A DNA stretch of 64,000 bases, taken from the NCBI GenBank assembly GCA_964187785.1, contig OZ076409.1, forward strand, positions 77,998,001 to 78,062,000. Direction: 5' to 3'. The first letter of the stretch is position 1; every line of letters starts with the position of its first letter. Below, one piece after another: positions 186 to 24,603 of this stretch. Under the pieces are notes generated by a model. The model was not told the DNA's origin, ran no database searches, and was given only the letters and a program-made list of their open reading frames with translations. This stretch comes from Amphiscolops sp. MND2022. Taxonomy: Eukaryota. A program made the position numbers and the translations under genes.

Positions 186-3100
186 GGAAGCTTCCGTGGT
201 AACAGAACTTCTTACAAACTGGGATCCCAATTGTTTCGGTAATGCAACGAAAGCACGCAGACCAAAACAAGCTGCCCAAAGACTAGTTATAAAGGACTTT
301 GACACTGAGCTCACTGACCAAGAAGCAAATGAAGACCTCAAAAATGAATACCCTGACGCCGAACTGAAATGTTTCACAAGAAGAGACGGGACACGCTTGT
401 CAACTGCTACCATTGAATTTTCTAATGAACAATCTCACTCCACCGAACATTAACGGACTTTCGAATCACTCCAAAGCAAGCTGTGGAAAGTTACATTGAT
501 GAACAAGGGGTTGGAGTGCTAGCATTATGCGAGACTGGCAAACTTTTAGGACAAAATGACTTCAGAAACTACATCACCTGTAGCAAAAACCAAAGAAAAG
601 GAGTGAGTATCTCAATTCACGACAGTCAACAATCGACGGAACTAAAATGCCTTATGACCAAAATTATAGACATTGTCTTCGCTCTAATCATAAGAGAAAA
701 CCAAAAGTTCGTCGTAGGAGCCGCATACGTACCACCCGATGATCAAGCTTCACTTGACCTGCTGTTAAAATCTCTAACATTTTGTGTCGCCTTCTGTAAT
801 GAACACAATATAAACAATCTGATTTTCATGGGAGACTTCAACTGCGCCATGAAGCGTGGAACGACACTACTCGAAACCAAATCGGCCAACTTCTTCATGA
901 GTACATAGAATCAGCAGAGCATCTAACAATAGCAAACCCAAATACTCCAACCTTCAGCTGCATAAACGGCTCCAGCATTCTAGACCTCTGTATTACCAGT
1001 CCAAATTTTCTTCCCTCCTTGAGTAACATCATGACAGACAACACAATTGAACTCTTTACAGGTGCACCCAATCGGGGTCACTTCCCAGTCACATGGGAAT
1101 GGTTGGTACCCAACTCAGCCAAGAAACAAGTTAAATGGGACCTTACTACAACTAATTGGGAATACTGGTGTCAACAGCTGGATGAGATGAGTCTGACAAC
1201 GCTACAAGACATTTCAATCTTAGATGACCCTTTTCAAATTTGGCATTCTATCAAAGATCTACTAAAGCAATGCATGATCGATGTCATTGACACGAAAGTT
1301 ATCACCCGTCACTCGAAGCCTTATTGGAATGAACGTCGAACGTATTGAAAAGATCTTCGACAAGTCAAAAAGAAGCTGAAACAACGGGAAAAAGGCAGCC
1401 ATTGGGCTCAGTATATGAGACACAAAGAACTCTTCAAATTAGAACTTAACCGCTCACTCAACACCTGGCTACAAAACAACTTAACAAATCTGAACAAAAC
1501 ATCAGGGCCAGACTTCTGGAAGAAATATCAACGTTTCATTGTGGACAGAAACAAAATAACTCTGGGGGTTCTCAAAAACCATGAAGGAAAACTTGTCTCT
1601 TCCACAGAAGAAAGAATTGAAGTTCTAAAAAGATCTTTCTTCACTGGGGAACACCTTAAAAGCCAGAATTTCAGCGAAATTGATCGATTGCAAGCTGTGA
1701 TCACAAAACTAGACTTCTCAGCAAAGATGCACTAGATGAAAAAAGTTGCTTTCTCAACGAACCCATTTCACTCCATGAAATAGAAACAGCCCTGAAAAAT
1801 CTTAAAACTGTATGCAAAGCTTTCGATCCTGATGGCTTTCATCCAAAACTCATTAAGCACTCCGGTCCCCGTTTCCGGTTGATTCTTCAATATCTCATCA
1901 GCAAATCACTGGAATGCGAAAAATGGGTCTGGCGGGAAGGAAAGGTTATTTTTCTCTCAAAAAATGGCAAAAAAGATTATCTAGAAGCAAAAAGTTTCAG
2001 GCCAATAACACTATTAAGTGTGATCGGCAAGCTTTTCGAATCAATCATCGCGGCTAGAATTAACTGGATACTAACTATAAATTATGCTCTTGATGACAAT
2101 CAGGAAGGTTTTCGAAGCGGACGAGGAACATCGCGAATGCTGTACAAAATTTTCAGCGACATCAATGGTATAAACTACCAAAAACGCCGAGCCGTCCTAG
2201 TTGGGATTGACCTTGAAAAAGCCTTTGACAGTGTGGACGTGAACCTAATGACTATTGAACTTATAAACGCAGGAGTTGTCGGAAAACTTGCCCGACTGAT
2301 TCATGATTATCTTTCCTCCCGGACTAACCGCATTCAAATCGATGACACCGTATCGCCGCAGTTTAGTTGTGAACTCGGTCTACCGCATAGAAGTATTCTA
2401 TCCCCGCTACTCTTCATCATTTTTATAATCGACATAGTTAGCGACCCTACACTTACCCACTACAAATGTGCCGATGACACTACACTCTTAGTCGAGTCAA
2501 ACACAGCATCAGATTCGCTTCTGAAAGCGTCTGAAGCCATCGAACAGGTCACGAATTGGTGCTTCCGAAATAGAATTATGATCAACGTCTCGAAAACTTT
2601 TTTTCTTCCCATCAACTTCTCCAAAGAGGAACTGGACCAAGCTCAAAGTTTCACCCACAAAGGCACGAAGGTAGTGAAAGAAAGATTGACTGTCACGGGA
2701 ATAGAAATTGGCGCTGTCAACGAAACCATCATGACCGCAACAAGAAAAGGCTGGGCTGAATGGGCCAAACTCAAGCAATTTTGTCAGATAACAAACGGTT
2801 TGAATTGCAAAACAATCATTAAACTTTACAGATGTGTTATTCAACCAAAAGTCTTTTACGGTCTTCCTGCCTGGAATACTGAAAACCTCAGTAAATTTAG
2901 CGATTTACAAAACACTGTTCTTCACACAGCCACCGGAGGCTACAGCAAACCGGCTGTCAGGAATCTGGAGCTGATGACAGGCGTCAAACCTGTAGACATC
3001 CAAGTTCAAATACTGACAATCAAATTCTTATCGAAAGTTCTCAGTACAAATGACTACATGAAAAAATACATTCTTGAAAATGCTGACACAAACCCGAAAG

Positions 3101-3668
3101 TTGAACGCGACCTAAAGATGCTCAAATGTTTTTTGGCATGGAAATTCAACTCAAGAACGAACAGAAACATTGACATAAAAGATTTGACAGCCTACACCCT
3201 TACATACAACCAAGCTGAAATCGAAAAATACGAATTAGGACTTTGGCAGAGACACTGGACCCATCAATGTGAGACCCCGCCAGTTCCACTCAACCACAAA
3301 ATCCAAATGCAGTACAGATTTTCCCGGAAAGACGAAGTAGACACCTTCAGAATAATATCAGGCCACTGCAAATTAAACGATTTTCTCTACAAAATTTGGA
3401 AAGCACCTTCTCCAAGATGCTCCTGTGGTTTTAACGAAGAAACAGTGGAACATTTCTTACTCTTCTGCAATATGTTCGATGAGCCTAGAGAAAAATGGCA
3501 AATTCGAGGCTCCCTGTCGGAAGCTCTCCAAAACAAGAACTTTACTGACTTTATCAAAGAAACAGAACGGTTTAATTGACTTCATGAGAACTTGTGTCAT
3601 TTCATCTTGTTTGAATAACTAAGATTGTTAACTGCTCGCAAAAAGGAGCTATCAGAATTATATATATA
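186..3668 (+). mobile_element. Degenerate non-LTR retrotransposon (LINE) with ORF1 remnant, APE endonuclease, RT and C-terminal Zn finger
   Basis: Broken ORFs 196-453, 483-908 (AAYVPP, IFMGDFN), 1019-1348, 1415-1735, 1879-3579 (FRPITLLS, QEGFR, DLEKAFDSV, CADD for YADD, CSCG..ETVEHFLLFC); short (TA)n tail near 3659-3668; several frameshifts/stops. Confidence 0.9.
1879..3579 (+). pseudogene. LINE reverse transcriptase fragment
   Basis: RT motifs present but altered (GLPHRS for GxPQGS, CADD); separated from upstream ORF2 pieces by stops/frameshifts. Confidence 0.85.
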
Positions 3669-5995
3669 GTAGTAGTAAAAGACTCAATTCACTGAGGACA
3701 GGAAGCGTAAACAACAATACGTATGAATGCTGCATTTACATGTTTGAAAGATATATATTTAGAAAGAAATACGATATCAGGAACGACACACAGAACATCT
3801 ACATCTCACATGATAGGTACACATGTTATTGTAGTTAAACTTTGTTCTAGTCAGATTTTTCAAATATTCAGAAAGTGCATGTTTGAATTTTTCCAACGGC
3901 CAATTGAAGTCAATGATTTTATCTGCAAGTAACACATTGCTTATCCAAGGAGCACGAACACAAAATTTTTCCATGGATTTCCACTTTGAAGAGTAGCTGA
4001 TTTCAAAAAGATCAAGTCGTGAATTTCTGGTTAGATTGCATTTTTGCTTCAGAGGCATCGTAATATGGAAATCGACACGTTTGTTCACAATTTTCCAAAG
4101 AAGAATGACATCGGCCCGAACAAGTTGATAACAAATTGGAAGGAGATCCAATCTTTCCAAGGTACATTCATAATCCAGGCCAGGACAGATCCATCGGAGC
4201 ACTTTTTTCTGGAAATTTTCCAAGCACTGTAGGCTAAAACAACAAGGGGCCCAACAAGGTGAAGCATACAAAAGAATACTCAGAACTAAAGTTTTATACA
4301 ACATTAACTTCTTCCCAGTTGAGAGACTAAACGGTAACACACGTCTGATAAATTGAAACACTTTGATCCCTTTTTGGATTGCTTTTAGGATGTGATCTTT
4401 CCAATTTAAATCTTTTGATATCAGGACACCTAAATCCAATATTTGATCTACGGAAATGAATGGGTTTTCTCCAAGGCGTAACGTCGAAGGTTGCGTTGAA
4501 TTTGAGCAGGGGAAAAGCTTCAACTTTGTAGTATTGAACTCCATTCGGTTATCATCATATTGTAGTAGACTGTTGATATCCATTTGGGTTTCAATGTTGG
4601 GTAGCATTGCAATCAGTTTGAGATCATCTGCAAAGAGAAAATCATGTGTGTATTGAATAACAGAGGGTAGGTCGTTTATAAATAGAAGGAACAACAGGGG
4701 ACCCAGGGTACTGCCTTGTGGTACTCCCGAAGTTATGGGCAGAATGCTTGAGCAAATATCATCAAAGCGAACACATTGTGAGCGGTCTGAAAGATAAGAG
4801 GCAAGTAACATTGTGATATTTCGATCAAAACCAAAAGACGGGAGCTTTTTGATGAGAAGATCATGAGGCACAGTGTCGAAAGCTTTCGCAAAATCGAAGT
4901 AAACACAAGAAAAGGGGATGTTTTGATCCAAACAATCATACAGGGCATCGAGATAGTGAATCAGTTGGGTTACTGTATTTCGCTTAGTCATAAAACCGAA
5001 TTGTGAATTAACGATTTTAGCTCTGACGCGAGGATAAATATGATCGAAAAGTATCTTCTCTAGAATGAGTGAAACGCGTGGTAAAATGCTGATTGGCCGA
5101 TAGTTAGTAACACAAGAAATAGATCCAGACTTATGCAGAGGGGTTATGTAAGCCAATTTCCATTCGGAGGGCCAGCTACAAGATTGAATAATTGAGAGAA
5201 ACAGATATTGTACTGCAGGTGCAATAAGATAGCCAGTATGTTTAAGCACAAAACAAGGAATGCCATCGGAAGTACAAGCAGTTGAGTCGTCAGCAAGTGT
5301 TAAGAGGGATACGATAGTTTCTAATTTGATATCGAGGTCGTCCAACGAAACTTCAATGTTTTCGGGCCATACCATATCATCAAGGTTTACCATAGTAGCT
5401 GGTTTGTAGACGGAGGCAAAGTATTTATTTAGCAGTTCACATTTTGAAAAATCGTCAGCTGAAGTATTATCACCATTTTTGAGCGTATTTGGTAAGCCCC
5501 TTTTTGAATTAAGAGACCGTAATAACTTGAAACAATGATTAGAATCTTTCAAATGTAGGTTTTCAACTAAAGAGGCTTTATCTAATTCAATGGAGAAAGA
5601 TAGATTTTGTTCACAGATATTGAGAGAAGCTGCATAAGAAGCGTTCCAATTTTTATCCAATTTTCTTTGTAAAGTGTTTTTACAATTTGCTAGGTGGACA
5701 GTATGAGATGAGAAGTAATATGGATATAATTGGCGCTTTTTACGTTTTTTAGAGAGCGATTTTTCCATGACTTCATGGAAATATTGGTACTATATCTCGA
5801 CAAAAATTGAGCGGAAAAACGAAACAGTTGGAAAGAAAGTTATAAAGTGGGTTAAGATTCTCGTTGAATGTTGCCAGAATTAAAGAGGATCGACTGTATT
5901 GTTTGCCAGTTGGAAGAGACTGTAGCATTTCGAAGGAGTTTATTCGTGTTTAAACAAATACTGGAAAATGATCGGAAATTTTCTCAGAATGGACA
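3669..5995 (-). mobile_element. CR1/L2-group LINE, 5' part runs into the assembly gap
   Basis: ORF 3777-5768 with NYRPISIL, QFGF, DFAKAFDTV, GVPQGS, FADDLK, DLGV; APE end motif ISDHFPV just before the gap; short (TAC)n tail near 3669-3678. Confidence 0.9.
3777..5768 (-). CDS. LINE ORF2 reverse transcriptase portion (663 aa open)
   Basis: Canonical non-LTR RT motifs; upstream endonuclease part is separated by a stop. Confidence 0.85.
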   Translation of the reverse strand: MEKSLSKKRKKRQLYPYYFSSHTVHLANCKNTLQRKLDKNWNASYAASLNICEQNLSFSIELDKASLVENLHLKDSNHCFKLLRSLNSKRGLPNTLKNGDNTSADDFSKCELLNKYFASVYKPATMVNLDDMVWPENIEVSLDDLDIKLETIVSLLTLADDSTACTSDGIPCFVLKHTGYLIAPAVQYLFLSIIQSCSWPSEWKLAYITPLHKSGSISCVTNYRPISILPRVSLILEKILFDHIYPRVRAKIVNSQFGFMTKRNTVTQLIHYLDALYDCLDQNIPFSCVYFDFAKAFDTVPHDLLIKKLPSFGFDRNITMLLASYLSDRSQCVRFDDICSSILPITSGVPQGSTLGPLLFLLFINDLPSVIQYTHDFLFADDLKLIAMLPNIETQMDINSLLQYDDNRMEFNTTKLKLFPCSNSTQPSTLRLGENPFISVDQILDLGVLISKDLNWKDHILKAIQKGIKVFQFIRRVLPFSLSTGKKLMLYKTLVLSILLYASPCWAPCCFSLQCLENFQKKVLRWICPGLDYECTLERLDLLPICYQLVRADVILLWKIVNKRVDFHITMPLKQKCNLTRNSRLDLFEISYSSKWKSMEKFCVRAPWISNVLLADKIIDFNWPLEKFKHALSEYLKNLTRTKFNYNNMCTYHVRCRCSVCRS

Positions 5996-6195
5996 NNNNN
6001 NNNNNNNNNNNNNNNNNNNNNNNNNNNNNNNNNNNNNNNNNNNNNNNNNNNNNNNNNNNNNNNNNNNNNNNNNNNNNNNNNNNNNNNNNNNNNNNNNNNN
6101 NNNNNNNNNNNNNNNNNNNNNNNNNNNNNNNNNNNNNNNNNNNNNNNNNNNNNNNNNNNNNNNNNNNNNNNNNNNNNNNNNNNNNNNNNNNNNNN
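5996..6195. other. Assembly gap (N run)
   Basis: Run of N bases. Confidence 1.
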
Positions 6196-6214
6196 TGATG
6201 ACAAGCGTTATCAT

Positions 6215-6234
6215 TACAGTGGGGTAACCGGCAA
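6215..6234 (+). repeat. Left terminal inverted repeat
   Basis: TACAGTGGGGTAACCGGCAA, preceded by ATCAT. Confidence 0.92.
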
Positions 6235-6892
6235 GGCCTTCCAAAACTCGGAAAATGTTGGGCAAAAACTCGGGAATGCATGGGCGAGTTTTGTTGTTCA
6301 TAACTGAAAATCTCGGAAACGCATGGGCGAAGTCAACTAATTGTTGAACATAATCTGTCCATTCGTTTCCCACCAAGTGTGGCCTTTCAATTTGATAGAA
6401 ACTTTGAATACATATCAAAAAATGTCCGAGATATACCTAATCAACTAAAGATAAGGATTTGCCGATTATCAGAATTTTAGTAAACCCTTCCCAGGTACTT
6501 TTTTTCGAAATAAATTTGAATAATGATTATCAAGCTTCCATGCTTCTCATCATTCCACCTTAAATCGAACAACTCTCATTTAATATAATTGAATAAGCTT
6601 AAACTCATACTATATATCAATCAATAGGAAGATTAGGAGATTACAAGAAGATTAGATTGGTATCATAAGATCTTTCCGGGGGCTTGTCTTTTTGAACAAT
6701 TTAATCCTCATTACTTTTTGTTTGACTCAATTGTTTAATGTTATTGTTGTCAATTATTACAATGTCGCTCCACTACTGTTCTTTTGCCCCAAATCGAAAA
6801 CAAAATGATTCACAAGAGACTGATTCAATTAAGAAACATAATGGAAAAGATATCACAATTGTTATGGCAATGGATACAAAAAATGAATAAAT

Positions 6893-8437
6893 TTAAAAAC
6901 TAAACTGACTTCTGCAATTATTGGCTGCGGAACGACGATATTCGTCATCGCCATTTAAATTGTCCTGGAAACAATCGATAGATACTCGCACAGTTTTCAG
7001 CAGAAAATCGTTGTTAATTGAAAATTTTAGGCTTTTGATAATGTGGCAGAAAGTTTTAGGGAAGATTGGTGGGAGCATATCCCATTGTCGGCCTAGGGTA
7101 CTGTCCCATTCTGCATTTTTGTGGAACTTTTCTGAGTCAGGATCTATATGAAATTTGACTTGGTGTCCAGAACCCATTAAAAAGATATTGTTGGAAATTT
7201 CGTCAACCAAGCAAATGTCCTGATTCATCATTGTGCGTTTGGACTGGGATATCCCGACCAAACGTTTCAGCGCTGACAGGTAATGAAAAGCTCTATTCAC
7301 AGGTGAACAAGCTGCGGACAAGTCCAGAGCTTTCTGCTTCATGTAGTTTGCTTCTGTCAACACTAGCTTTACAGCTGGGTAAGTGATGGAGTAGCATCTG
7401 TCTTCTTCATCGACCAGTTTCGCCATGGCCTTCTTCATCTCCACGTCGAACCATATCTTCTCCAATTTCATCGTGAAGACCGTGCTCCTAATGTTTATCG
7501 TAACGTGGTCACCTGATAACAGAATGCGAATATTCAGTTTCATTTAGTAATAATAATTTATTAACCACTTGAGAAAGATTTATGCGACAAAGTTTCTATA
7601 AGCATGTAAATTTTTCGAGAGGACGCTCGTGGCAAAAAACTTGGTTTCAGTTTTTTTGTTTGATTTTTTTTAGTACCGTAGAAGTTAGACTAGTAATAAT
7701 CAAATTGATCATTTACCTGCTGATGCAATACCATTTTCGCAGGGTACAATGTCCAGAAGTTCGTCTTTCTCGGCAAGACTCGCAATATATGCGGCAATAT
7801 CAATTTTCTGTCTGGGAGTGGTTATAGTGGGTTCTGGTTCTGCATCTGTTTCTACTACTCTCTTTTTTTGCCGCGATGGTTGGACATCTTCGGGCTCCGA
7901 ATCAAACTCTGAAGGCTGCCTCGTGTCAGGATGAGTCCAGTTCTTCGGACGAATTTGTTCATAGTCGATGAACTGGATGTCCTTTGTGCGCCCGTCGAAG
8001 GAAACAGCCATATTTTGCTGGAATGGGTCATTCATGACAACATAACCCGAGTTCAGCAGCTTCGACTCCTCGGCATCTTTTCTAACCTCTTCCAAACTAG
8101 GAATGTCCGCTGGTGATTTCCGTGATGTCCCAGTGAAAAAGATTCTGTCCCCTAGTTGGCGCTTTCTTGGGTCGGGGATGTCAAAAACGGTTTCTGCTGG
8201 CTTCTTGGATTTCCGGCGACCGCGGACATCTTGTAATACTATACATTTTCTAACCGGCCAGCAATTTTGGGGTGTGTTGGGGGACACTTCAATTCTGTCT
8301 GATCCGAATCGCTTCACAAGTTTATCGGGCCAATTGAGGTATTTCACTCGGATTCCAAATGATCCTTCAAACCCAATGATGCGAGCATCTTCCCAAATTT
8401 TTGTTGCAGGATCCAAAACTTGAACTTGCTCTTTCAT
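6893..8437 (-). CDS. Two-exon gene with N-terminal Tudor/chromo-barrel-like domain(s); exons ~8437-7717 and 7512-6893
   Basis: Phase-1 GT-AG intron 7513-7716 joins ORFs 7709-8494 and 6893-7543 in frame; VQVLDPATKIWEDARIIG..IRVKYLNW resembles PHF20/MBT-type Royal-family barrels; start codon approximate. Confidence 0.6.
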
Positions 8438-8737
8438 ATCAAAAACACTGATGAAATCCATTTCAATTAATGAAATTAGTGCTTTATTTTTCAAGAAATT
8501 TAATTTCGTAAACGAGTATTTTCAGTATTGCATTTGCCACTAATGTTTATCAAGCAAGTTTGAGCAAATAAAATCGTTATCGGGACAAATGATTATCAAG
8601 TGAGTTTGATCGACTCAAATCGTTACATACGCATAAGATGAATTTTAAATGTCAGACGCATATTAATTAATTGTCAGACGCATTTTAAATGACAATAAAC
8701 CCCCAGACACTTTTGCACGGAACATCCAAAACGTAGC

Positions 8738-9065
8738 ACGATAAATTTATAATTTTTTGTCAAACGCTTTTCGATCAAGCAGACGCATTTCAAAATCCAC
8801 GTGAGTGTGAGCACGCTAAAACTACAATTACTCGATTTATTTCCGATATAATCAATAACATCAATAACGTAATACGATAATTTTATAATATTTTGTCAAA
8901 CGCTTTTCGATCAAGCAGACGCATTTCAAAATCCACGTGAGTGTGAACACGCTAAAACTACAATTACTCGATTTATTTCCGATATAATCAATAACATCAA
9001 TAACGTAATACGATAATTTTATAATTTTTTGTCAAACGCTTTGCGAACCAGCAGACGCATTTCAA
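8738..9065. repeat. 136-bp tandem repeat (~2.4 copies) in the divergent intergenic region
   Basis: CAAACGCTTT recurs at 8761, 8897 and 9033. Confidence 0.85.
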
Positions 9066-9170
9066 GAATGGAAACGCTAGTGTGGAAACGATAAAGTGTC
9101 AATACGCTTTTGAAAAAACAACAACTACTAGAATAACTTCCAATATAACTTTCGACGTACGACAATCAGG

Positions 9171-12100
9171 ATGACAATACACCCCGAGAAGCTTCTGCAC
9201 GATTACACTGAAACAATTGATGGAAAAAGTTTTGTGGATGCTAAAATTTTGGATGTTTTTGCTGGGCATATTATAAGAGAAAAATCTCGAAAACTGAAAA
9301 GCGCGATCGAAATAGTAATTGAAGGAACTGAATTAAAACTCGAAGATTGTGTAATAAACAAAAAAAAACTTGCTTTGTTGCAATTGGAATATTGCAAATA
9401 ATAATTGTTCGTGGTTTACAAAGTGGGTTTCCATGGACACAATTACGAAGAAGATACGTGTCCTATTTTTTCCCAAATACGCCGCAGCTAATTCCCGACT
9501 CACAACCTTTTGTCAATCCACTTCCAATGCCAACAATCCCAGTGGAGCAGTTTTCTAAACCTGAATCAGGTTTCAGTCAGAAGATGCATACAATTCTCGC
9601 AACATTAGCAGCTACAGAACAAAAGCGGATTCATACTAAGGCCCAGAAGACCTCTCTGCATCAATTTGAAGCCAAGGCTCTGGTTAAGGGTGTTTTTTCA
9701 AACTATTTATCGTACGAAAAGCTGAAGTCAGACATATTTATCTGTACTAAAACTGGTAGTTGGATAAATATGATCAACACGCTGAAAAAAACTTTCCATG
9801 TCGATGGACTGGGTCAAAAACAACTAATTCCTGGTTCTACGGCGATCAAAGAGATGTCAAAACCGATGATTTCAAAGTTTATATCCCTATTCAAACCAAA
9901 AAACACTTTCTCGGGATTCAGAATTGATTTTGTACGTGCTATCAAAGTCATGACATTCATTCTGTTCAAAGGAAGAACTGATTTGCAAGGTCTGAAAGTT
10001 GATATTTGGGGAGATGGTGTTCAAATAGGGAAAAAGGATCAAACTCGAATGGCCTTCCGTTTTCTCGAAGGAACATCTATCAGCAATCAGTCATCAGATG
10101 CACTCTTCTCTTTTGCTGTTTTCCAAGGTATGTTCTGCTATTTTGTCCTGCTGAATCTTTAAATATAATTTAGCTCTAGGTTAGCTTCGCACACTTTACA
10201 ATACGTGTTTACAGGTCACGACGGTCGTTGGTTGCTAGAGCAAAATGTCGGGTACCTGGAACTAGGTGAGCAAGATTCCTCTTGGCTTTACCAGCAGACG
10301 AAACAACTCCATGACGCCGGAGTCCTTTTAACATACAGTGGAGATCAACCATTCCTAAATCGCCTTCTCATTGGAACCTCTGTTGATCACATGGAGAGTG
10401 AAGAAAATCCATCAAAATTGCAGATGTATCTTGGGAATGACGATTCAGTTAAACCAGAAACCGTGCACGAAAAAAGTGGACATCGAGGTGATGTTCGCCT
10501 ACCATTTCGAACCACCATTCCTCATGAAAGTTTGACGTTTTTGCCAGACATCAGATGCGTTTGTCCCGACGGCACTCATGCAATAACAAGGTGTGTCGAG
10601 GGAGACATTAGAAAGTTCATGGAGTTGAAAATTCTCCAATCTGAAGATGACTCAGCTACAGTTGATTATATTAGGGAAAATTTTCAGCGCAATTTGACCG
10701 AGAGAGGTTGGAAAGAGCCTGGCTTCGAATTTGACATTGACAAACGCAACAAAAAATGTGCTCCCATTTCCCTTAGTGGCAGAGAAGCTATCACTGGCAT
10801 TGCTGATATGTACGAACTTGCTGAGGCTGGTGTTCAGCATGAACTGTTCGAAGGAGTTTTTTCCGAGAACAAGACTGTTGGAGCCTTGTCGGGTACAAAA
10901 AGTGCAAGCATGAATGTGTTGAAAAATCTTCATCCCAATTCATTCGAAAATATCGAAAGCCCATGTCAAATGAAACTTTTGGTTGCAGCTGAACTCTGGA
11001 GAAAGTCACTAAATCAGCTTACCGTGCTGATGAGGACGAGGAAGAAATTCGAAGAACAGGACTTTTCCGACTATAAATACTGGTCAGAAATCCACTATCA
11101 CATTTCGATTGTACTGTTCGATGTAAAACTAGGTTTGACACCGTACAGACTGAAACTGTGCCTGATTCCCCAGCTGTTAGAAGGAGGCTACATTGAATCA
11201 CCCTTTAACCACCTGTGCGAAGGCCCCGAAAAATCAAATCATCATGTCCATAGAGACTTTCAGCAAAAGACCATGCGAGGGGGAGGGACAGTTCGACACG
11301 CCGACCCCATGTTTCTCGAAATGTTTTTCACTTTCTGTTCTGGTCTCCGGTTTTCGACTTTGGAAGGCACAATCGACGAACAGCTCTCACTTTGCCATCA
11401 ACGGCTTTTCAATGAACCCATAGAGGTGAACCTATCTTTTTTAGACTCCCTGGGACCAACTGAGAAAGCCATCATTCCCGTTGGAAAAGTTCGAGAGAAG
11501 TCCCGCCTTTTCTTGGGTAAGGATTTTTTTTGTACCTATATGCCCACGTCCAACTTTTTTGGTTATGAAACCTAAGTGGTATAAATTTAGCGAAATTTAG
11601 TTGGATAAACCAACAATATAGTGTGAATTTTGCTTTTCTTGCGACTCCGAAATAAATGTAGTGGATCGTTGAACAAATGTTTGACTTGAGTTTTGCTGAA
11701 TATTTGTATTGCACCGCAACACGTTGACAAATATTAGTCCTAAGTTACTCGGATGAAATACTTCCTCAAAACAGCAACAGATTCCAAGTACCACTGGCGT
11801 AGTGGTTACTTCGTGCGACGTTCCGTCGTTCCGCCGCTCGTTCGCTCTTGGTATACAGGTTCGCTTCTCTGCGCCGCTGTTGGTGCAGCCTTCGGTAACC
11901 AGTGGCTGGTATTGTGTCTGGTATTGTGTGTGGTAGCCATTGGCTGGTATTACTTGCCATAGATGTCGATTGCCGGTGACGACCGCGCATTCAACAACTG
12001 TGGCAATTAGTGAGTAGATTGAGATTGGAATTCTCTCTGGCGGAGAGAGAAATCCAATCTCAATCTACTTATTTTTATGTTTTCAACTTATTATTTGCAA

Positions 12101-13138
12101 TTAGTTCTTCGCTTAACAGTGAGTTTTGAATGATGCAATTACATACCTGTTCAGAACGATCGTAGCAAAGAAAATAGAATACAGTAGTGATATTATTAAA
12201 AGCAACAAAAGACAAATTTTAGAATCAAATATCTATCAAAAAGCATTTGACTGAAGGACTTGATATGTTTTGATTGAGAAATTATATTAAAGTCTCAATG
12301 AAACCACGCTGTAAAAATAGGCGTTTTCGAAAATACTAAGTTTTTAATAATCTCACTACTGTACATGCAAAACCGTCTTAGAATTATACGGCAATAAGCA
12401 CGTTCGGCAATGGAAGGACCACCTTAGAAACCTGTTGTTACATATTCGAAGTTCGGTATATAACCAATTGTTTTCACAGAACTAAACAATATTCCGTTTG
12501 CTCCAGGATCGAGATTCTTTCTGCACGGGAAATTCAATAAAGAGCAACGAATTCAACATGAAAACCAAGATGGAAAAACTCTTGGACCCGCTGAGTGTCT
12601 CAAAAAAGTTATCAAAAAAGCGGGAGGGAAAGTTCTAGAACGAGCAGCATTGAATACTCTCCTCTCCAGACACTCCAAGTTGCCACACATTTACGTGGTT
12701 CTCCAAAATGACACAGATCTTATTAGTGCAACAACGTCGTGTGATTCTTTGCCACAAGTGACAGAAGTTATGGCCAAAGGAAAATGCAAAAAAAGGAAAC
12801 TAAATGAACCAAGTCGAACCAGTTACGTTTTACGACACTTGGCCAGTCGTGGACTTACGTTTCTATCCGTTGACTATATTTTGAAAAGTATCGAAACTTC
12901 AACAATTTTGGATGTGGAGTCTTTTGCGTTCAAACCAGGGCCAGACATCCCATCAACTTCTGTTCGTGATCATCGCAAAATTTTCCTTCTTCAGAGGAAT
13001 CCCGAACTACAAAACACAACTTCAGCTATAACATCGGTACTTCGTAAACGACGAGAAATGCTGAAGAAGCGCGAACAAGAAAAAATGAATGACGCTCAGA
13101 AAGAACACGATGAATCATCCTCAGACTCATCAGACTGA
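9171..13138 (+). CDS. RAG1/Transib-like DDE transposase with C-terminal BRCT; exons 9171-10127 (frameshift in A9 at 9360-9368), 10215-11516, 12480-13138
   Basis: Two phase-1 GT-AG introns (10128-10214, 11517-12479) keep frame; motifs WGDG (D 10013), YSGDQPFL (D 10343), CPDGTH, LTPY, CEGPEKSNH (E 11228) are collinear with RAG1 SCDG, GYDEK, IDALH, TNY, SEGNESGNK; last exon FFLHG..LKKVIKKAGGKV..IYVV..VDYILKSIE is BRCT-like. Confidence 0.75.
12013..12069. repeat. Near-perfect hairpin (26-bp stem, 5-nt loop) in transposase intron 2
   Basis: AGTAGATTGAGATTGGA-ATTCTCTCT / AGAGAGAAA-TCCAATCTCAATCTACT, one mismatch. Confidence 0.9.
12180..12363. mobile_element. Tc1/mariner-type MITE (TA-flanked)
   Basis: TA-CAGTAGTGATATTATT ... 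AATAATCTCACTACTG-TA; relative at 21657-21897. Confidence 0.75.
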
Positions 13139-13697
13139 GAATCATTTGATAATCATAATTGATAAATCGTGAAAACTTTGATTCGAACAATAATAAATTA
13201 TTTTTACCTGTTTTTATTGTCAAAATTTAATTGAATCATTCGAATTGTTTTAAACAAATTCAAAATAGAAACGTACCAAAAAGTAGCAGCGCAAAATACT
13301 AAGTAAAAACCGAAAAGAAAGAATAAAACCAAATCTTTCAAAGACCAAGAACTGGAATTCAAAATTCTAAAGTATTACTACAGTAAACTGCGAAATTGCA
13401 TCAAGTGCTGAAATACTTCGCTGAAAACAAGTTTCGAGATTTAATAATAATATATATCAATACAATGAAATAAAATAATAAAGGTTAAGAATATGTAAAA
13501 CAAAAAATTTTATCTCGAAAATGGTTTTCAACGAACTAATCAATCAAGAGACCAAAAAGTGTTTCGACCGAGTTTTTTGTCAACAATTTGAAATAGGTGA
13601 GTTAATGATATGTTCCTGTTTGGGAAATTGAGAGACATGTACCGGTTGATAGTTTGCACAAATTTTCGTCGATTGCTCTTGGATCGGCTGCCTTTTT

Positions 13698-16600
13698 TTA
13701 ATTGAAGCTGAGGACATGTAGTGCTTTGGCCAGAAGCTCCCATTTCATTAGCCTACAGTTCCCAATGGCACTCTCTAGAATAACTTTCGTCATTAACGAT
13801 AAGAAATGTGGGAAACATTTCTCAAGAGGTTCATCATTGTCCCGTTCCCTCTGGTAAACAGTCAAAGTCGTGTCTAAAAACATATATGCACAAGCATTAG
13901 TAAAACTGCCTCGAACCCATAGAAGAAGTAAAACCCGAATTTTTTTGAGAAATTAACTTAATCCGATTTTAATTTTAAAAATGAAGATTTTTTCGATTTT
14001 TTTGCTTTTTACCTTTTATCTCTTCTAACAAACAACTGAGAAACAATTATATGAAAACTGAATTTCAAAATTACCTAGATCACAGATGGTGAGAAAATTG
14101 AATCCCACGGCCACGCTGTCCGCACAGGTTCTGACCATATGTATCATGCCTGCTGGCATGATCATTGACTCGCCGCCTGTTATCGTCACTTTAAACACTT
14201 GACTTTGGAGGTGGGTGTCACTTGGTAGGAAAACATTTTGTTTTGTTGCCTCAATGCACCAATTCTCGAGAATTTCTTGGTTTCGAACTGTTCCAGGAAT
14301 CATGAAAAACTCTTTTTTACCGTGAAGAAGATGGTAAAAGACGCTGGTATTCGTGTAGTCAACATGCCAAGGTGTAATGGAACCTTTTTGACTGAGAAGA
14401 ATATAGCAATTTTGCTCCAGCTCAAAATTGAATAAATGAGACACTGAAAGTTCTTTAACTGCCGTTGGTACATCGAAATGCAAGTTCTTTGTGAGACTGG
14501 AGCTAAGATCAAGGACATTCATTGGGCCGCTCATAGCTCCAAACTCAATGGCATTTACAAAATCTTTTCCTGAGAGTGTCAAACACAGGAGTTTTTGCAG
14601 CTGAAATAGACATGTGTTGTATATGAAAAAAGAATACACTTCGAAGATCTACAATTTTGGTTTTAAAATATAAAAACCCTAATATTTTTTAAATGTTCGG
14701 TTTTCATTGGTGAAGTTAAAAAGACGAAGCCAAAAACGAACACTGACAGGTTTGTACATTCGGACAGATAATTGTACATCTTCTGCGTGTAGACAGTCTT
14801 CGAAGATGTTTCTTCGCGCTCCAAAGTTGATGTTGGGCAATTTCATACCATCCATATGTCCTCGAACAATACAGGCTCTTTTCCGCTGCAGCTCCTCCTC
14901 TATTTCGCTGCTGGTAACATTGGTGCAGCAAACTCGCATCTCGGACCCGGAAGATTCTCTGATTACATCCAGCAGCTCATGATGCTCTGCTTCATCCACA
15001 AATGCAACCAGAGAAACTTCTTCATCTTCTGCTTGAACCTGTTCGTAGCTGTTGGAATCTGAAACGAAAATTGTCAATATCATAATAAAGTTTTTTAAAT
15101 GATTGGTAGATGTTTTTCGAATACTTTTGATGAGTATCAGTGGATTCGTTTGGCAAGTAGTAAAATTGGTATGTAGAAATTTTGATATAGGTAAAACAAT
15201 AGGATTTTATTGTACCTTGGGGATTGTGTGTGGCTACTTCTTCACTTTCGTCTTCCTCACGGTTCTCTTCCTGGAGGGATTCTTCATTGCTGTCAGAATC
15301 TGAAACAAACATCGTCAAAATCAATTTAACGTTATTGAGATGATTGGTTGTTTGTCGAATATTTTCGATACGTAATATTGATATAGGTAAACAAGTCGAA
15401 GTCGTGTCTAAAAACACATATGCACAAGTATTAGTAAAACTGCCTTGAACACATGGATGGAACAAAATCCGATTTTTTTAAAAATTAACTCAATCCGATT
15501 TTAATTTTAAAAGTAAAGATTTTTTGATTTTTTTTGCTTTTTACCTTTCATCTCTTTTAACAAATAACTGAGAAACAATATTTTATGAAAACTGAATTTT
15601 ATTGTACCTTGGCGAACGTGTGTGGCTACTTCTTCTTCACTTTCGTCTTCCTCACAGGTCTCTTCCTGAAGGGCTTCATTGCTGTCGGAATCTGAAACAA
15701 AAATCGTCAAAATTATTATAAAATTATTGAGATTTGTGGATGTTTTTCGAATATTCTCGATAAGTATCAGTGGAATCGTTTGACAAGTAGGCAAATTGGT
15801 GTAGAAAAATTGATATAAGTAAAACGATAGGATTTTATTGTACCTTGGCGAACGTGTGTGGCTACTTCTTCTTCACTTTCGTCTTCCTCACAGGTCTCTT
15901 CCTGGAGGGCTTCTTCATCGTTGTCAGAATCTGAAACAAAAATCGTCAAAATCATAATAAAGTTAGAGAAGATTGGATGTTTTTCGGATATTTTCGATAA
16001 GTATCAGTGGAATCGTTTGACAAGTAGTCAAATTGGTGTAGAAAAAATGATATAGGTAAAACAATAGGATTTTATTGTACCTTGGCGAACGTGTGTGGCT
16101 ACTTCTTTTTCACTTTCGTCTTCCTCACAGATCTCTTCCTGGAGGGCTTCTTCATCGTTGTCAGAATCTGAAACAAAAGTCGTCAAAATCATAATAAAGT
16201 TAGAGAAGATTGGATGTTTTTCGGATATTTTCGATAAGTATCAGTGGAATCGTTTGACAAGTAGTCAAATTGGTGTAGAAAAAATGATATAGGTAAAACA
16301 ATAGGATTTTATTGTGCCTTGGCGAACGTGTGTGGCTACTTTTTCACTTTCATCTTCTTGACGGTTCTCTTCTTGGAGGGCTTCATTGCTGTCGGAATCT
16401 GAAACAAAAATCGTCAAAATCATAATAAAGTTAGAGAAGATTGGATGTTTTTCGGATATTTTCGATAAGTATCAGTGGAATCGTTTGACAAGTAGTCAAA
16501 TTGGTGTAGAAAAATTGATATAGGTAAAACAATAGGATTTTATTGTACCTTGGCGAACGTGTGTGGCTACTTTTTCACTTTCATCTTCTTGACGGTTCTC

Positions 16601-19150
16601 TTCTTGGAGAGCTTCATTGCTGTCGGAATCTGAAACAAAAATCGTCAAAATCATTATAATGTTAGAGAAGATTGGATGTTTTTCGGATATTTTCGATAAG
16701 TATCAGTGGAATCGTTTGACAAGTAGTTCACAAATTGGTGTAGAAAAATTGATATAGGAAAAACAATAGGATTTTATTATACCTTGGCGAACGTGTGTGG
16801 CTACTTTTTCACTTGCATCTTCTTGACGGTTCTCTTCTTGGAGGGCTTCTCCATTGCTGTCAGAATCTGAAACAAAAATCGTCAAAATCATTATAAAGTT
16901 ATTGAGAAGATTGGATGTTTTTCGGATATTTTCGATAAGTATCAGTGGAATCGTTTGACAAGTAGTTCACAAATTGGTGTAGAAAAATTGATATAGGAAA
17001 AACAATAGGATTTTATTGTACCTTGGCGAACGTGTGTGGCTACTTTTTCACTTTCATCTTCTTGACGGTTCTCTTCTTGGAGAGCTTCATTGCTGTCGGA
17101 ATCTGAAACAAAAATCGTCAAAATCATTATAATGTTAGAGAAGATTGGATGTTTTTCGGATATTTTCGATAAGTATCAGTGGAATCGTTTGACAAGTAGT
17201 TCACAAATTGGTGTAGAAAAATTGATATAGGAAAAACAATAGGATTTTATTATACCTTGGCGAACGTGTGTGGCTACTTTTTCACTTGCATCTTCTTGAC
17301 GGTTCTCTTCTTGGAGGGCTTCTCCATTGCTGTCGGAATCTGAAACAAAAATCGTCAAAATCATTATAAAGTTATTGAGAAGATTTGTGGATGTTTTTCG
17401 AATATTTTCGATAAGTATCAGTGAAATCGTTTGGCAAGTAGTCAAACTGGTATGTCGAAAAATTGATATAAGTAAAACGATAGGATTTTATTGTACCTTG
17501 GCGAACGTGTGTGGCTACTTCTTCTTCACTTTCGTCTTCTTGACGGTTCTCTTCTTGGGGAAAGTGTGTGACTACTTCTTCTTCACTTTCGTCTTCCTCA
17601 TAGGTCTCCTCCTGGAGGGCTTCATTGCTGTCGGAATCTGAAACAAAAATCGTCAAAATCATCATAAAGTTATTGAGAAGATTTGTGGATGTTTTTCGAA
17701 TATTTTCGATAAGTATCAGTGGAATCGTTTGGCAAGTAGTCAAACTGGTATGTCGAAAAATTGATATGAGTAAAACGATAGGATTTTATTGTACCTTGGC
17801 GAACGTGTGTGGCTACTTCTTCTTCACTTTCGTCTTCTTGACGGTTCTCTTCTTGGGGAAAGTGTGTGACTACTTCTTCTTCACTTTCGTCTTCCTCATA
17901 GGTCTCCTCCTGGAGGGCTTCATTGCTGTCGGAATCTGAAACAAAAATCGTCAAAATCATTAAAAAGTTATTGAGAAGATTTGTGGATGTTTTTCGAATA
18001 TTTTCGATAAGTATCAGTGGAATCGTTTGGCAAGTAGTCAAACTGGTATGTCGAAAAATTGATATGAGTAAAACGATAGGATTTTATTGTACCTTGGCGA
18101 ACGTGTGTGGCTACTTCTTCTTCACTTTCGTCTTCTTGACGGTTCTCTTCTTGGGGAAAGTGTGTGACTACTTCTTCTTCACTTTCGTCTTCCTCATAGG
18201 TCTCCTCCTGGAGGGCTTCATTGCTGTCGGAATCTGAAACAAAAATCGTCAAAATCATCATAAAGTTATTGAGAAGATTTGTGGATGTTTTTCGAATATT
18301 TTCGATAAGTATCAGTGGAATCGTTTGGCAAGTAGTCAAACTGGTATGTCGAAAAATTGATATAAGTAAAACGATAGGATTTTATTGTACCTTGGCGAAC
18401 GTGTGTGGCTACTTCTTCTTCACTTTCGTCTTCCTCACAGGTCTCTTCCTGGAGGGCTTCTTCATCGCTGTCAGAATCTGGTTCGATGTGAACTCGACGG
18501 TACCGACGTGACGTCCTTCTCTGTTCTCTTCTTCTTCTCGAATCCATCCTCGCTTGCCATCGTGGGTGTTCGATCTTCTTCTTTGGGGTCCCTTTGATTT
18601 TAATCAGGTCTTTGATTCGATGGGAATAACCTTTCCCCTCCCGCCGTCTTTTTTCCGACCAGCTGTACTCTCCTGGCACATTGCCTTTGGGCTTTTTTTT
18701 AAGAACAGCGGATTCCCCTTTAAGATAAAACGATTTGTATTTTTGCTTCAGGCAATCGTAAGCAGAACTTTCCTTGCACAATTCCTCGATGTTTTCTGGT
18801 GTTGGTTCCAACAAATTTCCTGGGTACCATTCCTCCCTTTGCAACTCAAACACTTTCAGGGTGCAAGTTCTTCCGAGGGAGTGTTGAGCGGTCCTGTGAT
18901 AGCTAAAGAACGGTCCTCCGTCTTTCTCGCCGCATCCACAAAAGCGACAAATAAAATTTGCCCGACTGTAAATTTTTTGTGCAATGCAGGTGAACTCCAG
19001 CTGGTGTTCTTCAACAGGTCTCTTCCTTGGTGCCCAGTCTTTGTACATGTGCCTCTGGCACGCAACTTTTTCGCTGAATTTTCTCCGGCATTCTGAAACA
19101 CATATTCCGATTAGTATTGGTGAAAAACATGTTTGAAAAAAATTCGACAT
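13698..19150 (-). CDS. Multi-exon JmjC histone demethylase-like gene (KDM2/KDM7 type) with N-terminal Cys/His region and acidic repeat exons
   Basis: Exons 19150-~18391, 12 repeat exons, 15058-14748, 14600-14075, 13873-13698 with consistent phases; YILLSQKGSITPWHVDYTNTSVFYHLLHGKKEFFMIP..MPAGMIHMVRT..DSVAVGFNFL keeps HxD..H and the 2-OG Lys; a possible frameshift may extend the C-terminus to 13540. Confidence 0.8.
15059..18480 (-). repeat. Tandem array of intron+exon units (mostly ~231-241 bp, three of 298 bp), each exon coding DSDSNEALQEE(T/N)xxEDESEEEVATHVRQ-like acidic peptides
   Basis: Each unit has TTTCAG|ATTC acceptor and CCAAG|GTA donor (one GC donor near 16316); example exon 15691-15608 is 84 nt, phase 1-1. 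Confidence 0.88.
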
Positions 19151-19707
19151 TTTAAATTCTATTTCAGATATCCGAACAGATCATCAAAATGATAATGCCA
19201 TTTAAGACTTGGAAACGCATGGGCAATTTGAAACGCAGAAATACATGGCTTTTTCATTGCTTTTCATCACTCGGAAACGGATGGGCGAACGTTCAATTCA
19301 TTTTATGCCAATTAGCTTACGTTATTTCATACTTCGGTTTTTATCCCCTATTTTGAAACGATAATTGAAGGTTCGCACGTCATCAGGTAATTATCACCAC
19401 AGTTGAGTTGAAAAGCGTCCTTAAATGAGCTCATCTTCATGCAAATCTAAATAGCACATCCGCAAAGCTATTACCAACGGTATGTACTACTTTTTTCAAT
19501 AATTAAATAATTCATTATCAGAAATGAATAATTATCATATATGTACTATTTAATACGAAGATCACCATTTTTCTTTAATTATAATATACCACAGTTGATT
19601 GACGAAGCGTCTTTGAATTAGTTCGAATTTGGATCGCTCAAGGAAAGGATTGAGCACTCACCATTCAATCCAAACAGTAGCTAGAAAACAGTCTCTTTTA
19701 CATAACG

Positions 19708-21075
19708 ATGAACCCTCCTCAACATGAGAAATCTCTCTCTTACACTGTCTTGGGGACTAGCCCGGCTGTGACAAATTCTGTTGCTCCAAACGAAACATTT
19801 GAAAGATTTTCGACTCCATTTAAACCGAATGAAAGCAACTTTGCATACTACATGAGTACTCCCTTGGATCAATCTAGTTCGACACAACAGTTGTATGGAT
19901 CACCCAGTGTGTCATCTAAAAGCTGGCCAAGTTTCACCCAAGTTGAACAAAGGATATTTTCACAAATCTCTAATATAGAAGGTGTGAATTATGAAGATAG
20001 CCCTTCGGACGTCTCGATAATGGTACAAGCTCAACTTGCTGCAAATCAAATGACACCTCTGTTAATCAACACTGCAAATCAACTGAACCACACTCCGAAT
20101 GACAGTACGACGAATCAACTGAGCCACACTCCAAGTGACAGTACGACGAATCAACTGAGCCACACACCGAGTGACAGTACGACGAATCAACGGAGCCACA
20201 CCCCAAGTGACAGTACGAGCCACACTCCGAGTGACATCATGGCAAGCCAACTGAGCCGTTCTTCAAGTGATATCGCGGCAAGTCAGCTGAGCCAAACTCC
20301 GAGTGATATCATGGCAAGTCAGCTGAGCCGTTCTTGCAACGACACCTTGGCAAACATGGAAAGATGCCAACAGGAGATAGCGAACAAGCGGAAACTTAAC
20401 CATTATGATGAGGAAAACCATGGCCCAAAAAGTAAACGATGTGTTCCCAAAAACTATGAGAAAAATTTGCGAGAAATTACCCCAGTGCACCTAACATTAT
20501 GCACAACTGTTGAAGCGCGACTCTTGTCAGACCTTTATGACATAATGAAGCAATTCAAATTCGCAAAATCTCTAACCAGCATTGACAAAACCAATTTGTT
20601 TGGGGACCTCATTGCTTATTTGCTGGAATTTTCTATTCCAAAGTGTAGAGATCGCAAAATTTTGAGCATTACAACTCATGCCGTTTTACAAATGGTCCCT
20701 CAAATTCAGCACAATAGAAGTTCTAACTCAAGTGACTTGTTAGTCTTGCAAATTGAAGATGAAGCTGGGTACTTGGACAGCTTCAGAATTCCTCACATTG
20801 TTGGAGAAGCAATGTTAATATATTTTGAAGCTGTACGACCGTACTTCATAAAACCTGAAGGTATCGACCAGAAAAAAAGGTTCATGCAGTCACCCAGTCA
20901 AGGGATACCACCATATTACGTCATGACGGAGCCATTCTTTGTCAACAGCTGGGGAAAAACACAATTCAAAGTGCGGAACATAAGAAATCGGATTGAACAG
21001 GTAACTAATCAAATACTGTTTGATAAGAATTACTTGACTCACTTTGCAATACCCCTTACTTCCAAGATGACTTGA
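19708..21075 (+). CDS. Ser/Thr-rich N-terminus with 12-aa repeats plus truncated tyrosine-recombinase-like domain
   Basis: NQLSHTPSDSTT repeats (~20078-20345); LIAYLL..KCRDRKILSIT, AMLIYFEAVRP and PFFVNSWGK resemble the N-terminal half of a YR catalytic domain; no HxxR/H/Y half. Confidence 0.5.
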   Translation: MNPPQHEKSLSYTVLGTSPAVTNSVAPNETFERFSTPFKPNESNFAYYMSTPLDQSSSTQQLYGSPSVSSKSWPSFTQVEQRIFSQISNIEGVNYEDSPSDVSIMVQAQLAANQMTPLLINTANQLNHTPNDSTTNQLSHTPSDSTTNQLSHTPSDSTTNQRSHTPSDSTSHTPSDIMASQLSRSSSDIAASQLSQTPSDIMASQLSRSCNDTLANMERCQQEIANKRKLNHYDEENHGPKSKRCVPKNYEKNLREITPVHLTLCTTVEARLLSDLYDIMKQFKFAKSLTSIDKTNLFGDLIAYLLEFSIPKCRDRKILSITTHAVLQMVPQIQHNRSSNSSDLLVLQIEDEAGYLDSFRIPHIVGEAMLIYFEAVRPYFIKPEGIDQKKRFMQSPSQGIPPYYVMTEPFFVNSWGKTQFKVRNIRNRIEQVTNQILFDKNYLTHFAIPLTSKMT

Positions 21076-21569
21076 AAGATAGATGCGAAAACCAATTCTG
21101 ACCAGGCGTCTGCGATGTTGTCTATCCTACAATGGGTCGAGGAATAATCGCGACCAAACCATTTAACAAGGATGACGTTATTTTTGACTACCACGGACAT
21201 GTAGAAGAAAACACGAACAACGTCGACTACTACTGCAGTCTGGACCCAGAGAACCGCAAGCCAGAATACTGCATCGAGGTTAAAACAAGGCCGGGAAGAA
21301 TTATTGATGCAACCTCGGAAATATGCCCCATCCACAACGATGGCAGAAGGTGCCTTGCTCGATTGTGCAATTACTCAAGTACCTTTGATGGTGGAAAGAC
21401 CAACCCAGCTTGTAACATGAAACTGGTCGAATTGAAATGTACATACTTGAAAAATAATCCGCGTTACGTGCTACTTATTGCAAAGCGGAAAATTGAACCC
21501 CTGGAGCAGCTGATGTTTGATTACATGGACCCCGAAGCCAATAGAATTTTCGGCGGTAATGCCGAGTAA
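21063..21569 (+). pseudogene. SET-domain methyltransferase (PR-Set7/SETD8-like), probably disrupted
   Basis: GRGIIATKPFNKDDVIFDYHG, IDAT, ARLCNYS, CNMK, IEPLEQLMFDY; in-frame TGA at 21099-21101 in Q-F-*-P-G-V upstream of ATG 21132. Confidence 0.8.
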
Positions 21570-21656
21570 AACCATTGATAAACTCGAACTTTGTTTTTAA
21601 CTTATCAGTTTTTATATAATTTTTGTTGGAATATTAGTCATTGTCATCTAGTCAAA

Positions 21657-21897
21657 TACAGTGGTGATATTTTTAAAAGCAACAAAGCCGCTTCAAAGTC
21701 TGCGGCAGGTGAAAAAAAAACTTCAAAGTCATCCCAAAACATGTATTTTCGAAAAAATCTTCAAACAAACATATTTGTAAACTAGATAAAAATCTAGAAT
21801 ACGTTTATTTTTATAAGTTTTCATAAACCACTGCCGTTTTAGAGATATTCGATTTTGAGATTTGCCTTTTGATGCTCTCAATAATATCACTACTGTA
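21657..21897. mobile_element. Tc1/mariner-type MITE, same family as 12180-12363
   Basis: TA-CAGTGGTGATATT ... AATATCACTACTG-TA; shared AAAAGCAACAAA. Confidence 0.75.
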
Positions 21898-22400
21898 TAT
21901 TATCTTCGGGTTTTGTTTTCTTTGTCAATTTTGAATTCAAAATATGCCAATGGATATTCCAAAAAGCAGATATCGATTAACACTCTCAAGGAATCATATA
22001 AAAGAACTAACTGGGGCAGACGGTCGGATCGTTGAGGAGGCTGATTTGATCCCTATCAGTCAAAATGTGCTCCTGGAGAGTGACTTGTTCATCATCGGTC
22101 TCAACTTCCTCGTTTCCTGCAGCAACGTAGTCAAACGTGAAACATTCGGATTTAGTTTTCCTATTATTCATGTGTTCAAATAGTGGTTGATGAACTGCGG
22201 GCATTAGTCAAAACATAGACACATGTAAGATTTCAAAAAGTTCATGTTAAAAACTAACTCTGACAGACGGTTGGCTCATCTCTGTCAGTCGAAACGCCGC
22301 GGTGTTCTTGAAGAACTGCTTCGGTACTGGCTTCTCTATCATGATGAAGGCTTGGCCTAAATTTGGGCTGAAAAAAACAACAAATTTGCCAAATTTACAT

Positions 22401-22449
22401 TAAAGTGGGGTAACCGACAAGGCCTTCCAAAACTCGGGAATCCATGGGC
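22401..22449 (+). repeat. Internal degenerate copy of the transposon left end
   Basis: TAAAGTGGGGTAACCGACAAGGCCTTCCAAAACTCGG matches 6215-6251 with two substitutions, one in the heptamer. Confidence 0.9.
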
Positions 22450-22567
22450 ACGTTTTGATATCCGTAACCGAATTTCTGGCAACCAAATGAGCAAAACTTT
22501 TGAGATTAGAATAACAGTGTATTTCTATATAAGCATTATATTTAATTTTTTTTGACTAAGAAATATC

Positions 22568-24581: not shown

Positions 24582-24601
24582 TTGCCGGTTACCCCACTGT
24601 A
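24582..24601 (-). repeat. Right terminal inverted repeat
   Basis: TTGCCGGTTACCCCACTGTA is the exact reverse complement of 6215-6234, followed by ATCAT. Confidence 0.92.
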
Positions 24602-24603
24602 AT

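Follow-up and report, generated by a model that had tools for sequence, protein, structure and literature searches.

The window analysed here is a stretch of 64,000 nucleotides from Amphiscolops sp. MND2022 (assembly GCA_964187785.1, contig OZ076409.1, positions 77,998,001 to 78,062,000 of the forward strand), and it holds a DNA transposon of 18,393 bp (6212–24604) with four genes, one of which encodes a transposase. We consider it probable that this is a recently amplified cut-and-paste transposon of 18 kb, whose enzyme is predicted to be built on the RAG1 core, lacks the zinc motifs of that core and carries a single BRCT domain at its C-terminus.

The zinc ligands of RAG1 are C727 and C730, located 19–22 residues after D708, and H937 and H942, located 20–25 residues before E962; mutations in this site destabilise the protein (PMC4914335). 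The corresponding motifs, C(2)C and H(3-4)H, are both reported for every lineage of the CACTA/Mirage/Chapaev/Transib (CMCT) clade listed in a 2025 survey (PMC12730594). Neither motif was found at its expected place in the protein encoded in the window. We compared this protein with two sets of homologues: (i) 103 aligned proteins of at least 300 amino acids (aa), taken from 126 plus the window model, of which 32 remain at 70% identity, and (ii) 111 further proteins of at least 150 aa, compared in motif-anchored windows down to ~30% identity, many of which are redundant copies. No CxxC appeared ~20 residues after the second Asp in any of the 62 proteins covering the site (in two, an unconserved CxxC lies at another point of the stretch), and H(3-4)H after the TPY motif was likewise absent from all 76 proteins that cover that site. 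The second set gave the same picture, with the ligands in 0/29 windows for C(2)C and 0/37 for H(3-4)H, including a clade at ~30% identity that ends in BRCT. The absence of both motifs, which the original prediction had noted for the single protein, is thus a property of the lineage. At the spacing of the first Cys all 72 proteins have Ser or Thr, and 25 residues before the Glu all 77 have Lys. A search of the full protein library recovered 540 clusters (at 50% identity) at E ≤ 0.001, 150 of them listed, many of which may come from one host. The prediction had also claimed that the lineage lost both halves of the zinc site. The lineage-wide absence stands; that the motifs were lost, rather than originally absent, we infer because all other CMCT lineages carry both (PMC12730594).

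The fold was modelled on P0032, an intronless relative from subfamily A of the element, which encodes transposase and BRCT in a single open reading frame (ORF) of 1,012 aa. The model, built from 26 sequences with a mean predicted local distance difference test score (pLDDT) of 69.6 (below 50 in the N-terminal 91 residues), surrounds the first Asp with three strands, has another strand that terminates in the second Asp, and shows the insertion as helical. Residues 214–739 of P0032 superpose on RAG1 459–1008 with Z 17.7 and a root mean square deviation (rmsd) of 3.8 Å over 410 aligned residues, and pairwise structural alignment with HzTransib gave Z 15.5. Foldseek returned 47 hits at E < 0.001, which among the matches listed were all RAG1, BbRAG1L or HzTransib. 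A structure search of 48,161 chains ranked RAG1 first (Z 16.4), followed by BbRAG1L (15.1), HzTransib (12.5) and the P element (10.9), with ISCth4 lower. The three acidic residues are well conserved (D315 in 47/48, D395 in 74/74 and E690 in 73/76, P0032 numbering), and the second Asp and the Glu are separated by 283–316 residues. The complete core fold of RAG1/Transib is therefore predicted for the transposase, and the model agrees with the earlier assignment of the gene as RAG1-like. Matches to MreB and poxvirus C7 were below threshold and were rejected.

The boundaries of the element, which the original prediction had not drawn, were set by comparing copies. Sequence is common to the seven compared copies from 6212 onward, and in six of the seven through to the right end. 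The element is bounded by 22-bp terminal inverted repeats, the left one starting with CATTAC (6212–6234, + strand) and the right one (24582–24604, − strand) with its terminal G changed to C in the window copy; the first 22 bases of the left end have 152 exact matches in the genome, while the reversed control has none. A 2-bp target duplication of variable sequence, AT in the window (6210–6211 and 24605–24606), occurs at 25 of 27 paired ends overall, made up of 13/13 pairs (in 18 regions), another 10/10 pairs, that of the window copy and one out of three from subfamily B. Longer duplications matched at one of 23 pairs for 3 bp and at none of 23 for 5 bp; a 5-bp duplication in the window, an early guess, was dropped after the other copies fixed the element ends. 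The element is multi-copy and recently amplified. The exon-2 protein has at least 92 matches in its own 1.07-Gb genome (a lower bound, 91 of 1030 candidates having been scored), 19 of them full-length at 99–100%, and mean divergence is 0.19% among the 20 best-scoring copies, a figure biased low as these were picked as best hits. Three further subfamilies of 15–20 kb carry transposases 38–44% identical, and the CATTAC ends are present in all four subfamilies. The window copy itself is probably defective: its last base is altered and ~550 bp of the SET gene are missing, so that it is probably not autonomous.

Other structures related to the ends were also observed. A degenerate internal copy of the left end, ~75% identical, lies at 22398–22495, 2.1 kb short of the right end, and is present in each of the six full copies compared; together with inverted repeats at 22541–22953 it may represent a nested non-autonomous relative. 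Two short elements, G000 C3:45569550-45571182 (1.6 kb) and C6:71517832-71518507 (0.7 kb), have both terminal repeats and 2-bp duplications and are non-autonomous derivatives. Scans of viral contigs and metagenome contigs confirmed no relatives there.

The transposase gene occupies 9171–13138 on the + strand in three exons. No RNA was listed for it, which carries no weight as to expression. The five collinear motifs named in the original prediction are all present and in order: WGDG (Asp at 10013–10015), which we take to be the Transib-type first Asp motif, SGDQ (Asp at 10343–10345), PDGTH (Asp at 10568, His at 10577), TPY (11138) and EGPEKSN (Glu at 11228–11230). The gene starts with an N-terminal domain of unassigned fold (9171–9368), which is conserved in the alignment of relatives and has no Pfam or PDB match; a by-eye KilA-N/APSES reading of it was rejected, as profile and fold searches gave no support and pLDDT was below 50. 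The rest of exon 1 (9368–10127) is assigned, by its conservation and by the RAG1 superposition of P0032 from residue 214, to the dimerisation/pre-RNase H region with the first catalytic Asp. Exon 2 (10215–11516) holds the second Asp, the conserved His (10577–10579), the insertion domain without zinc motifs, the Glu and the C-terminal helices. The introns, at 10128–10214 and 11517–12506, are GT-AG and keep the frame. Small inverted-repeat insertions were seen at 12013–12069, 12170–12363 and 21658–21907; two lie within intron 2, and the intron-2 insertion is similar, in the opposite orientation, to sequence that follows the SET gene.

Exon 3 (12507–13138) encodes the single BRCT domain followed by a basic/acidic tail. 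It was predicted to splice in frame and to read as BRCT, and both parts stand: the junction is in-frame GT-AG, and a Pfam scan of the exon called BRCT_2 (E 3.3e-6) just above the cut-off, at 27.7 bits vs 27.3. The acceptor is less simple, since there are two in frame. That of the original prediction, ending at 12479, adds nine residues; the other, which ends at 12506 and is intact in 19 of 20 copies, joins the exons as in the single-ORF homologues, and 12507 is most likely the exon start. In P0032, residues 823–966 match single BRCT repeats (Z 11.3–11.5, rmsd 2.2). The predicted transposase–BRCT fusion is thus corroborated by one uninterrupted reading frame, and the joining of a RAG1-like core to BRCT is real for the lineage without recourse to RNA, because subfamily A encodes both in that frame. 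A BRCT region was found in 50 of the 75 proteins covering the core, and Pfam BRCT_2 was called in 20 of 58 lineage members. In a distant clade (P0159, P0160, P0164, P0168) the BRCT is followed by a basic, aromatic-rich helical tail that is HMG-box-like by eye; Pfam made no call on it.

The fold matches of this domain include the BRCTs of MDC1, BRCA1, XRCC1, ligase IV, PARP1 and RFC, which, with the retention of the fusion down to 30% identity, could suggest direct binding to DNA ends or to phosphorylated repair proteins, in line with the recruitment of repair factors proposed in the original prediction. We think such direct binding improbable. The matches all tie in Z and therefore name no function. 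There is only one repeat, with ~93 residues aligned and no tandem partner. Phosphate-binding BRCTs (BRCA1, MDC1, RFC) need Ser or Thr before the β1 Gly; 36 of 45 proteins of the lineage have V, L, I or H at this position, and the Thr-Gly of the NAD-ligase BRCT aligns to Leu-Gly. Neither the two repeats nor the Ser/Thr-Gly pocket of tandem phosphopeptide-binding BRCTs was found, and the domain seems to lack a phosphate pocket. Since the BRCT is single and the residue before the Gly is mostly aliphatic, binding of phosphoproteins or DNA ends is less likely, and phosphate-independent protein docking appears the likelier use.

Several observations weigh against the reading of the element as a recently amplified transposon with a zinc-less, BRCT-bearing RAG1-core enzyme. 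The structure model is of a relative 42–44% identical and not of the window protein itself. The structure comparison proposed in the original prediction bore out the fold with both RAG1 and HzTransib, but the clustering of the catalytic triad is not visible in the model because the Glu-bearing residues 688–714 have pLDDT below 50. Moreover, the fold comparisons give ranges only, and single-residue equivalence to RAG1 C727/C730/H937/H942 rests on spacing and known motifs. Searches of PDB sequences and Pfam, including one with a profile of 58 sequences, brought up neither RAG1 nor any other transposase by sequence; none of the 58 lineage members matches a Pfam transposase family. A Pfam RAG1 (PF12940) scan of the own genome gave no match but is uninformative, as its control also matched nowhere. 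Language-model features retrieved RAG1-family clusters at 0.88–0.93 but with fewer than 170 shared features. Two subfamily B copies have no matching 2-bp duplication, and 25 of the 75 core homologues lack a BRCT in the predicted protein; those inspected stop early or at an intron, and true loss is possible. Furthermore, a frameshift near the 5' end affects 18 of 20 copies, the other two being open. Finally, three nearly invariant His and a common Cys (His468 in 75/76, His684 in 76/77, His694 in 74/76 and Cys473 in 60/80, P0032 numbering) could form another metal site.

This last point invites the proposal that a structural metal is still bound via rearranged ligands, the site having been replaced and not lost. 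We regard this as distinctly unlikely: His468 we take, from its motif, to be the third conserved CMCT His, the other two His lie on either side of the catalytic Glu, 20 of 80 proteins have another residue in place of Cys473, and there is no conserved Cys pair. One such His is expected in CMCT transposases according to the survey (PMC12730594).

The frameshift concerns the gene start: the frame from the ATG at 9171 stops at 9399, and homology resumes in the −1 frame across an A9 run at 9360–9368, where the frame of relatives is open. Our window protein model of 964 aa accordingly has an X placed at the frame break. Rather than decay or a homopolymer assembly error, the shift might be programmed, with −1 slippage at the A-run, ribosomal or transcriptional, limiting full-length transposase. 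The run is A9 in most copies, each of three shorter runs is the same in 18–19 of 19 copies, and the 70 bases that follow have a folding energy of −17.1 kcal/mol vs −10.4 ± 2.7 for 200 mononucleotide shuffles. Nevertheless, the run length varies among copies (A8, A9 or A10), relatives do without the shift, the AT content of the hairpin is high and the shuffle control lenient, and we consider a programmed shift unlikely. As to subfamily B, two copies (L050-L055) border a long satellite of short units from opposite sides, with duplications that do not match, possibly as a result of rearrangement between them.

The lineage shares with RAG1 and RAG1-like proteins (ProtoRAG, TransibSU) the predicted core fold from dimerisation domain to C-terminal domain, the D-D-E order, the large insertion between second Asp and Glu, and CA..TG ends. 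It differs in the missing C727/C730/H937/H942-type ligands, in ~10% structural identity, in a 2-bp rather than 5-bp duplication and in the C-terminal BRCT; no Chapa/RING N-terminus was seen and no RAG2-like gene was recognised among the cargo, where the beta-rich half of cargo gene 1 is poorly modelled (pLDDT below 50). The CATTAC ends agree with the heptamer of the RAG1/Transib recombination signal sequence in the first two bases only. With HzTransib it shares the fold (Z 12.5–15.5) and short repeats, but not the Transib zinc motifs; Transib elements encode one protein (PMC4411706), whereas the new element has four genes in 15–20 kb. Duplication length alone is a weak classifier, because it varies from 2 to 5 bp within Transib according to a preprint (bioRxiv 10.64898/2026.08.26.747230). 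The same text describes the ZnB domain of HzTransib as contacting repeat or target DNA, and for both reasons ligand loss and the 2-bp stagger may be linked.

The CA..TG termini and 2-bp duplication fit the terminal definition of the CMCT clade (EnSpm/CACTA, Mirage, Chapaev, Plavaka, ESTA, Lanisha), and one conserved His is common to both; PlavakaB, for instance, has CATCA ends and a 2–3 bp duplication (PMC12730594). Measured against that clade, the lineage has a D-D-E RNase H-like transposase (the Glu lying in a low-confidence stretch of the model) and CA..TG ends with a duplication within 2–5 bp, but not C(2)C and H(3-4)H, which the survey states for all CMCT. Because it has neither the two CMCT motifs nor the end features of Transib, the lineage was not filed under a named family. 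It probably represents a new branch of RAG1-related transposases, a variant within the CMCT clade; our phylogenetic tree was built within the new lineage. Alternatively, Repbase or Dfam may already list the lineage among animal EnSpm-like or unclassified families that have 2-bp duplications, so that only its anatomy is undescribed. The ends and duplication would suit such an entry, and 540 clusters make earlier sampling plausible. We hold this to be unlikely, as the CMCT lineages listed in the survey all keep both motifs (PMC12730594), none of 58 members matches a Pfam transposase family, and in the literature searched, with Repbase Reports and most subscription journals outside the search, we found no description of such a lineage, BRCT fusion or cargo set.

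The remaining three genes are cargo. Cargo gene 1 (6893–8458, −) consists of two ORFs here and one in subfamily C, and has orthologues in all four subfamilies. The model of the subfamily C orthologue (pLDDT 48 overall) has two confident Tudor/SH3-like barrels and a beta-rich domain with pLDDT below 50; barrel matches were almost all Tudor/Agenet (best E 4.7e-4; Z 5–6, a level that may mean a mere common barrel), and an Atlas look-up for the gene returned nothing (best 0.87). Tandem repeats of 136 bp (families D10/D11; 8721–9065) lie between the divergent genes. Cargo gene 2 (13700–19092, −, ends approximate) has a zinc-finger-like first exon, tandem acidic mini-exons and a JmjC exon at ~14075–14601 with HxD...H (Pfam E 1.1e-9; KDM2A E 3.4e-18, PHF8 E 2.1e-17; metal ligands present). 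It was found in three of four subfamilies and not in subfamily B among ORFs of at least 120 aa. Its 15000–18520 part comprises ~13 tandem intron-exon units of 231–298 bp bearing the mini-exons, the unit number differing among copies. Cargo gene 3 (19709–21569, +) fuses an N-terminal domain without assigned family to SET (Pfam E 8e-9; SETD8, E 5.8e-6, is the closest solved structure). The window copy lacks the ~550 bp at 21046 that seven of seven other copies have, and the subfamily C gene is a single 680-aa ORF; SET and Tudor-like genes occur in all four subfamilies. A by-eye resemblance of its N-terminal part to tyrosine recombinases was rejected, with no Pfam, PHROG or PDB match, and a viral origin of the element was also rejected, as the ORFs scanned matched neither a capsid or polymerase nor any PHROG family.

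Around the element, two LINE-like reverse transcriptase elements lie to the left on opposite strands (429–5789), followed by an assembly gap (~5997–6195). To the right are an acidic 225-aa ORF with an 83-bp tandem array (24568–25245 and 25438–28020), a ribosomal protein S5-like ORF (28293–28862, −; Pfam E 1.3e-6) and a Bel/Pao-like long terminal repeat retrotransposon (39308–46821) with long gag and pol ORFs by eye and an extra 228-aa ORF in front.

On the preferred reading of a cut-and-paste transposon with a zinc-less RAG1-core enzyme, a transposase dimer would likely bind both terminal repeats, and the D-D-E centre would likely cut as in RAG1/Transib, insertion following with a 2-base stagger. 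The insertion domain would likely be held without zinc, by residues now near-invariant where that site used to be (Ser/Thr 414, Lys 665 and His 684, P0032 numbering). The BRCT would likely dock host end-joining or chromatin factors, or the element's own proteins, phosphate-independently, and the SET, JmjC and Tudor-like cargo would likely keep the chromatin of the element open against silencing. We infer these steps. DNA transposons with their own SET methyltransferase gene are known from Phytophthora HarbingerS and MuDR elements, and TET/JBP provides a precedent for chromatin-enzyme cargo in CMCT, both according to PMC12730594; HarbingerS and MuDR have other transposases, whereas the new element has writer, eraser and reader-like genes together. 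The cargo also recalls a single histone mark, lysine 20 of histone H4 (H4K20). SETD8, PHF8 and 53BP1 all act on it. It is attractive to speculate, though we doubt it, that the lineage is a superfamily-level zinc-independent RAG1-fold branch with its own H4K20-centred circuit, in which a SETD8-like writer, a PHF8-like eraser, a 53BP1-like Tudor pair and the transposase BRCT set chromatin and steer break repair.

The C2H2 zinc site is the signature common to RAG1 and all described CMCT transposases, and the absence of its ligands changes the motif used for classifying the CMCT clade. A widespread lineage (the 540 clusters) that lacks the ligands and was recently mobile provides a natural experiment on the role of the site. 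If the zinc-independent, H4K20-centred reading is true, an active enzyme can dispense with the zinc site of RAG1, possibly alongside a switch to a 2-bp stagger. With a transposase that has a built-in BRCT and histone writer, eraser and reader-like cargo, transposon control of host repair and silencing would become testable via the intronless member.

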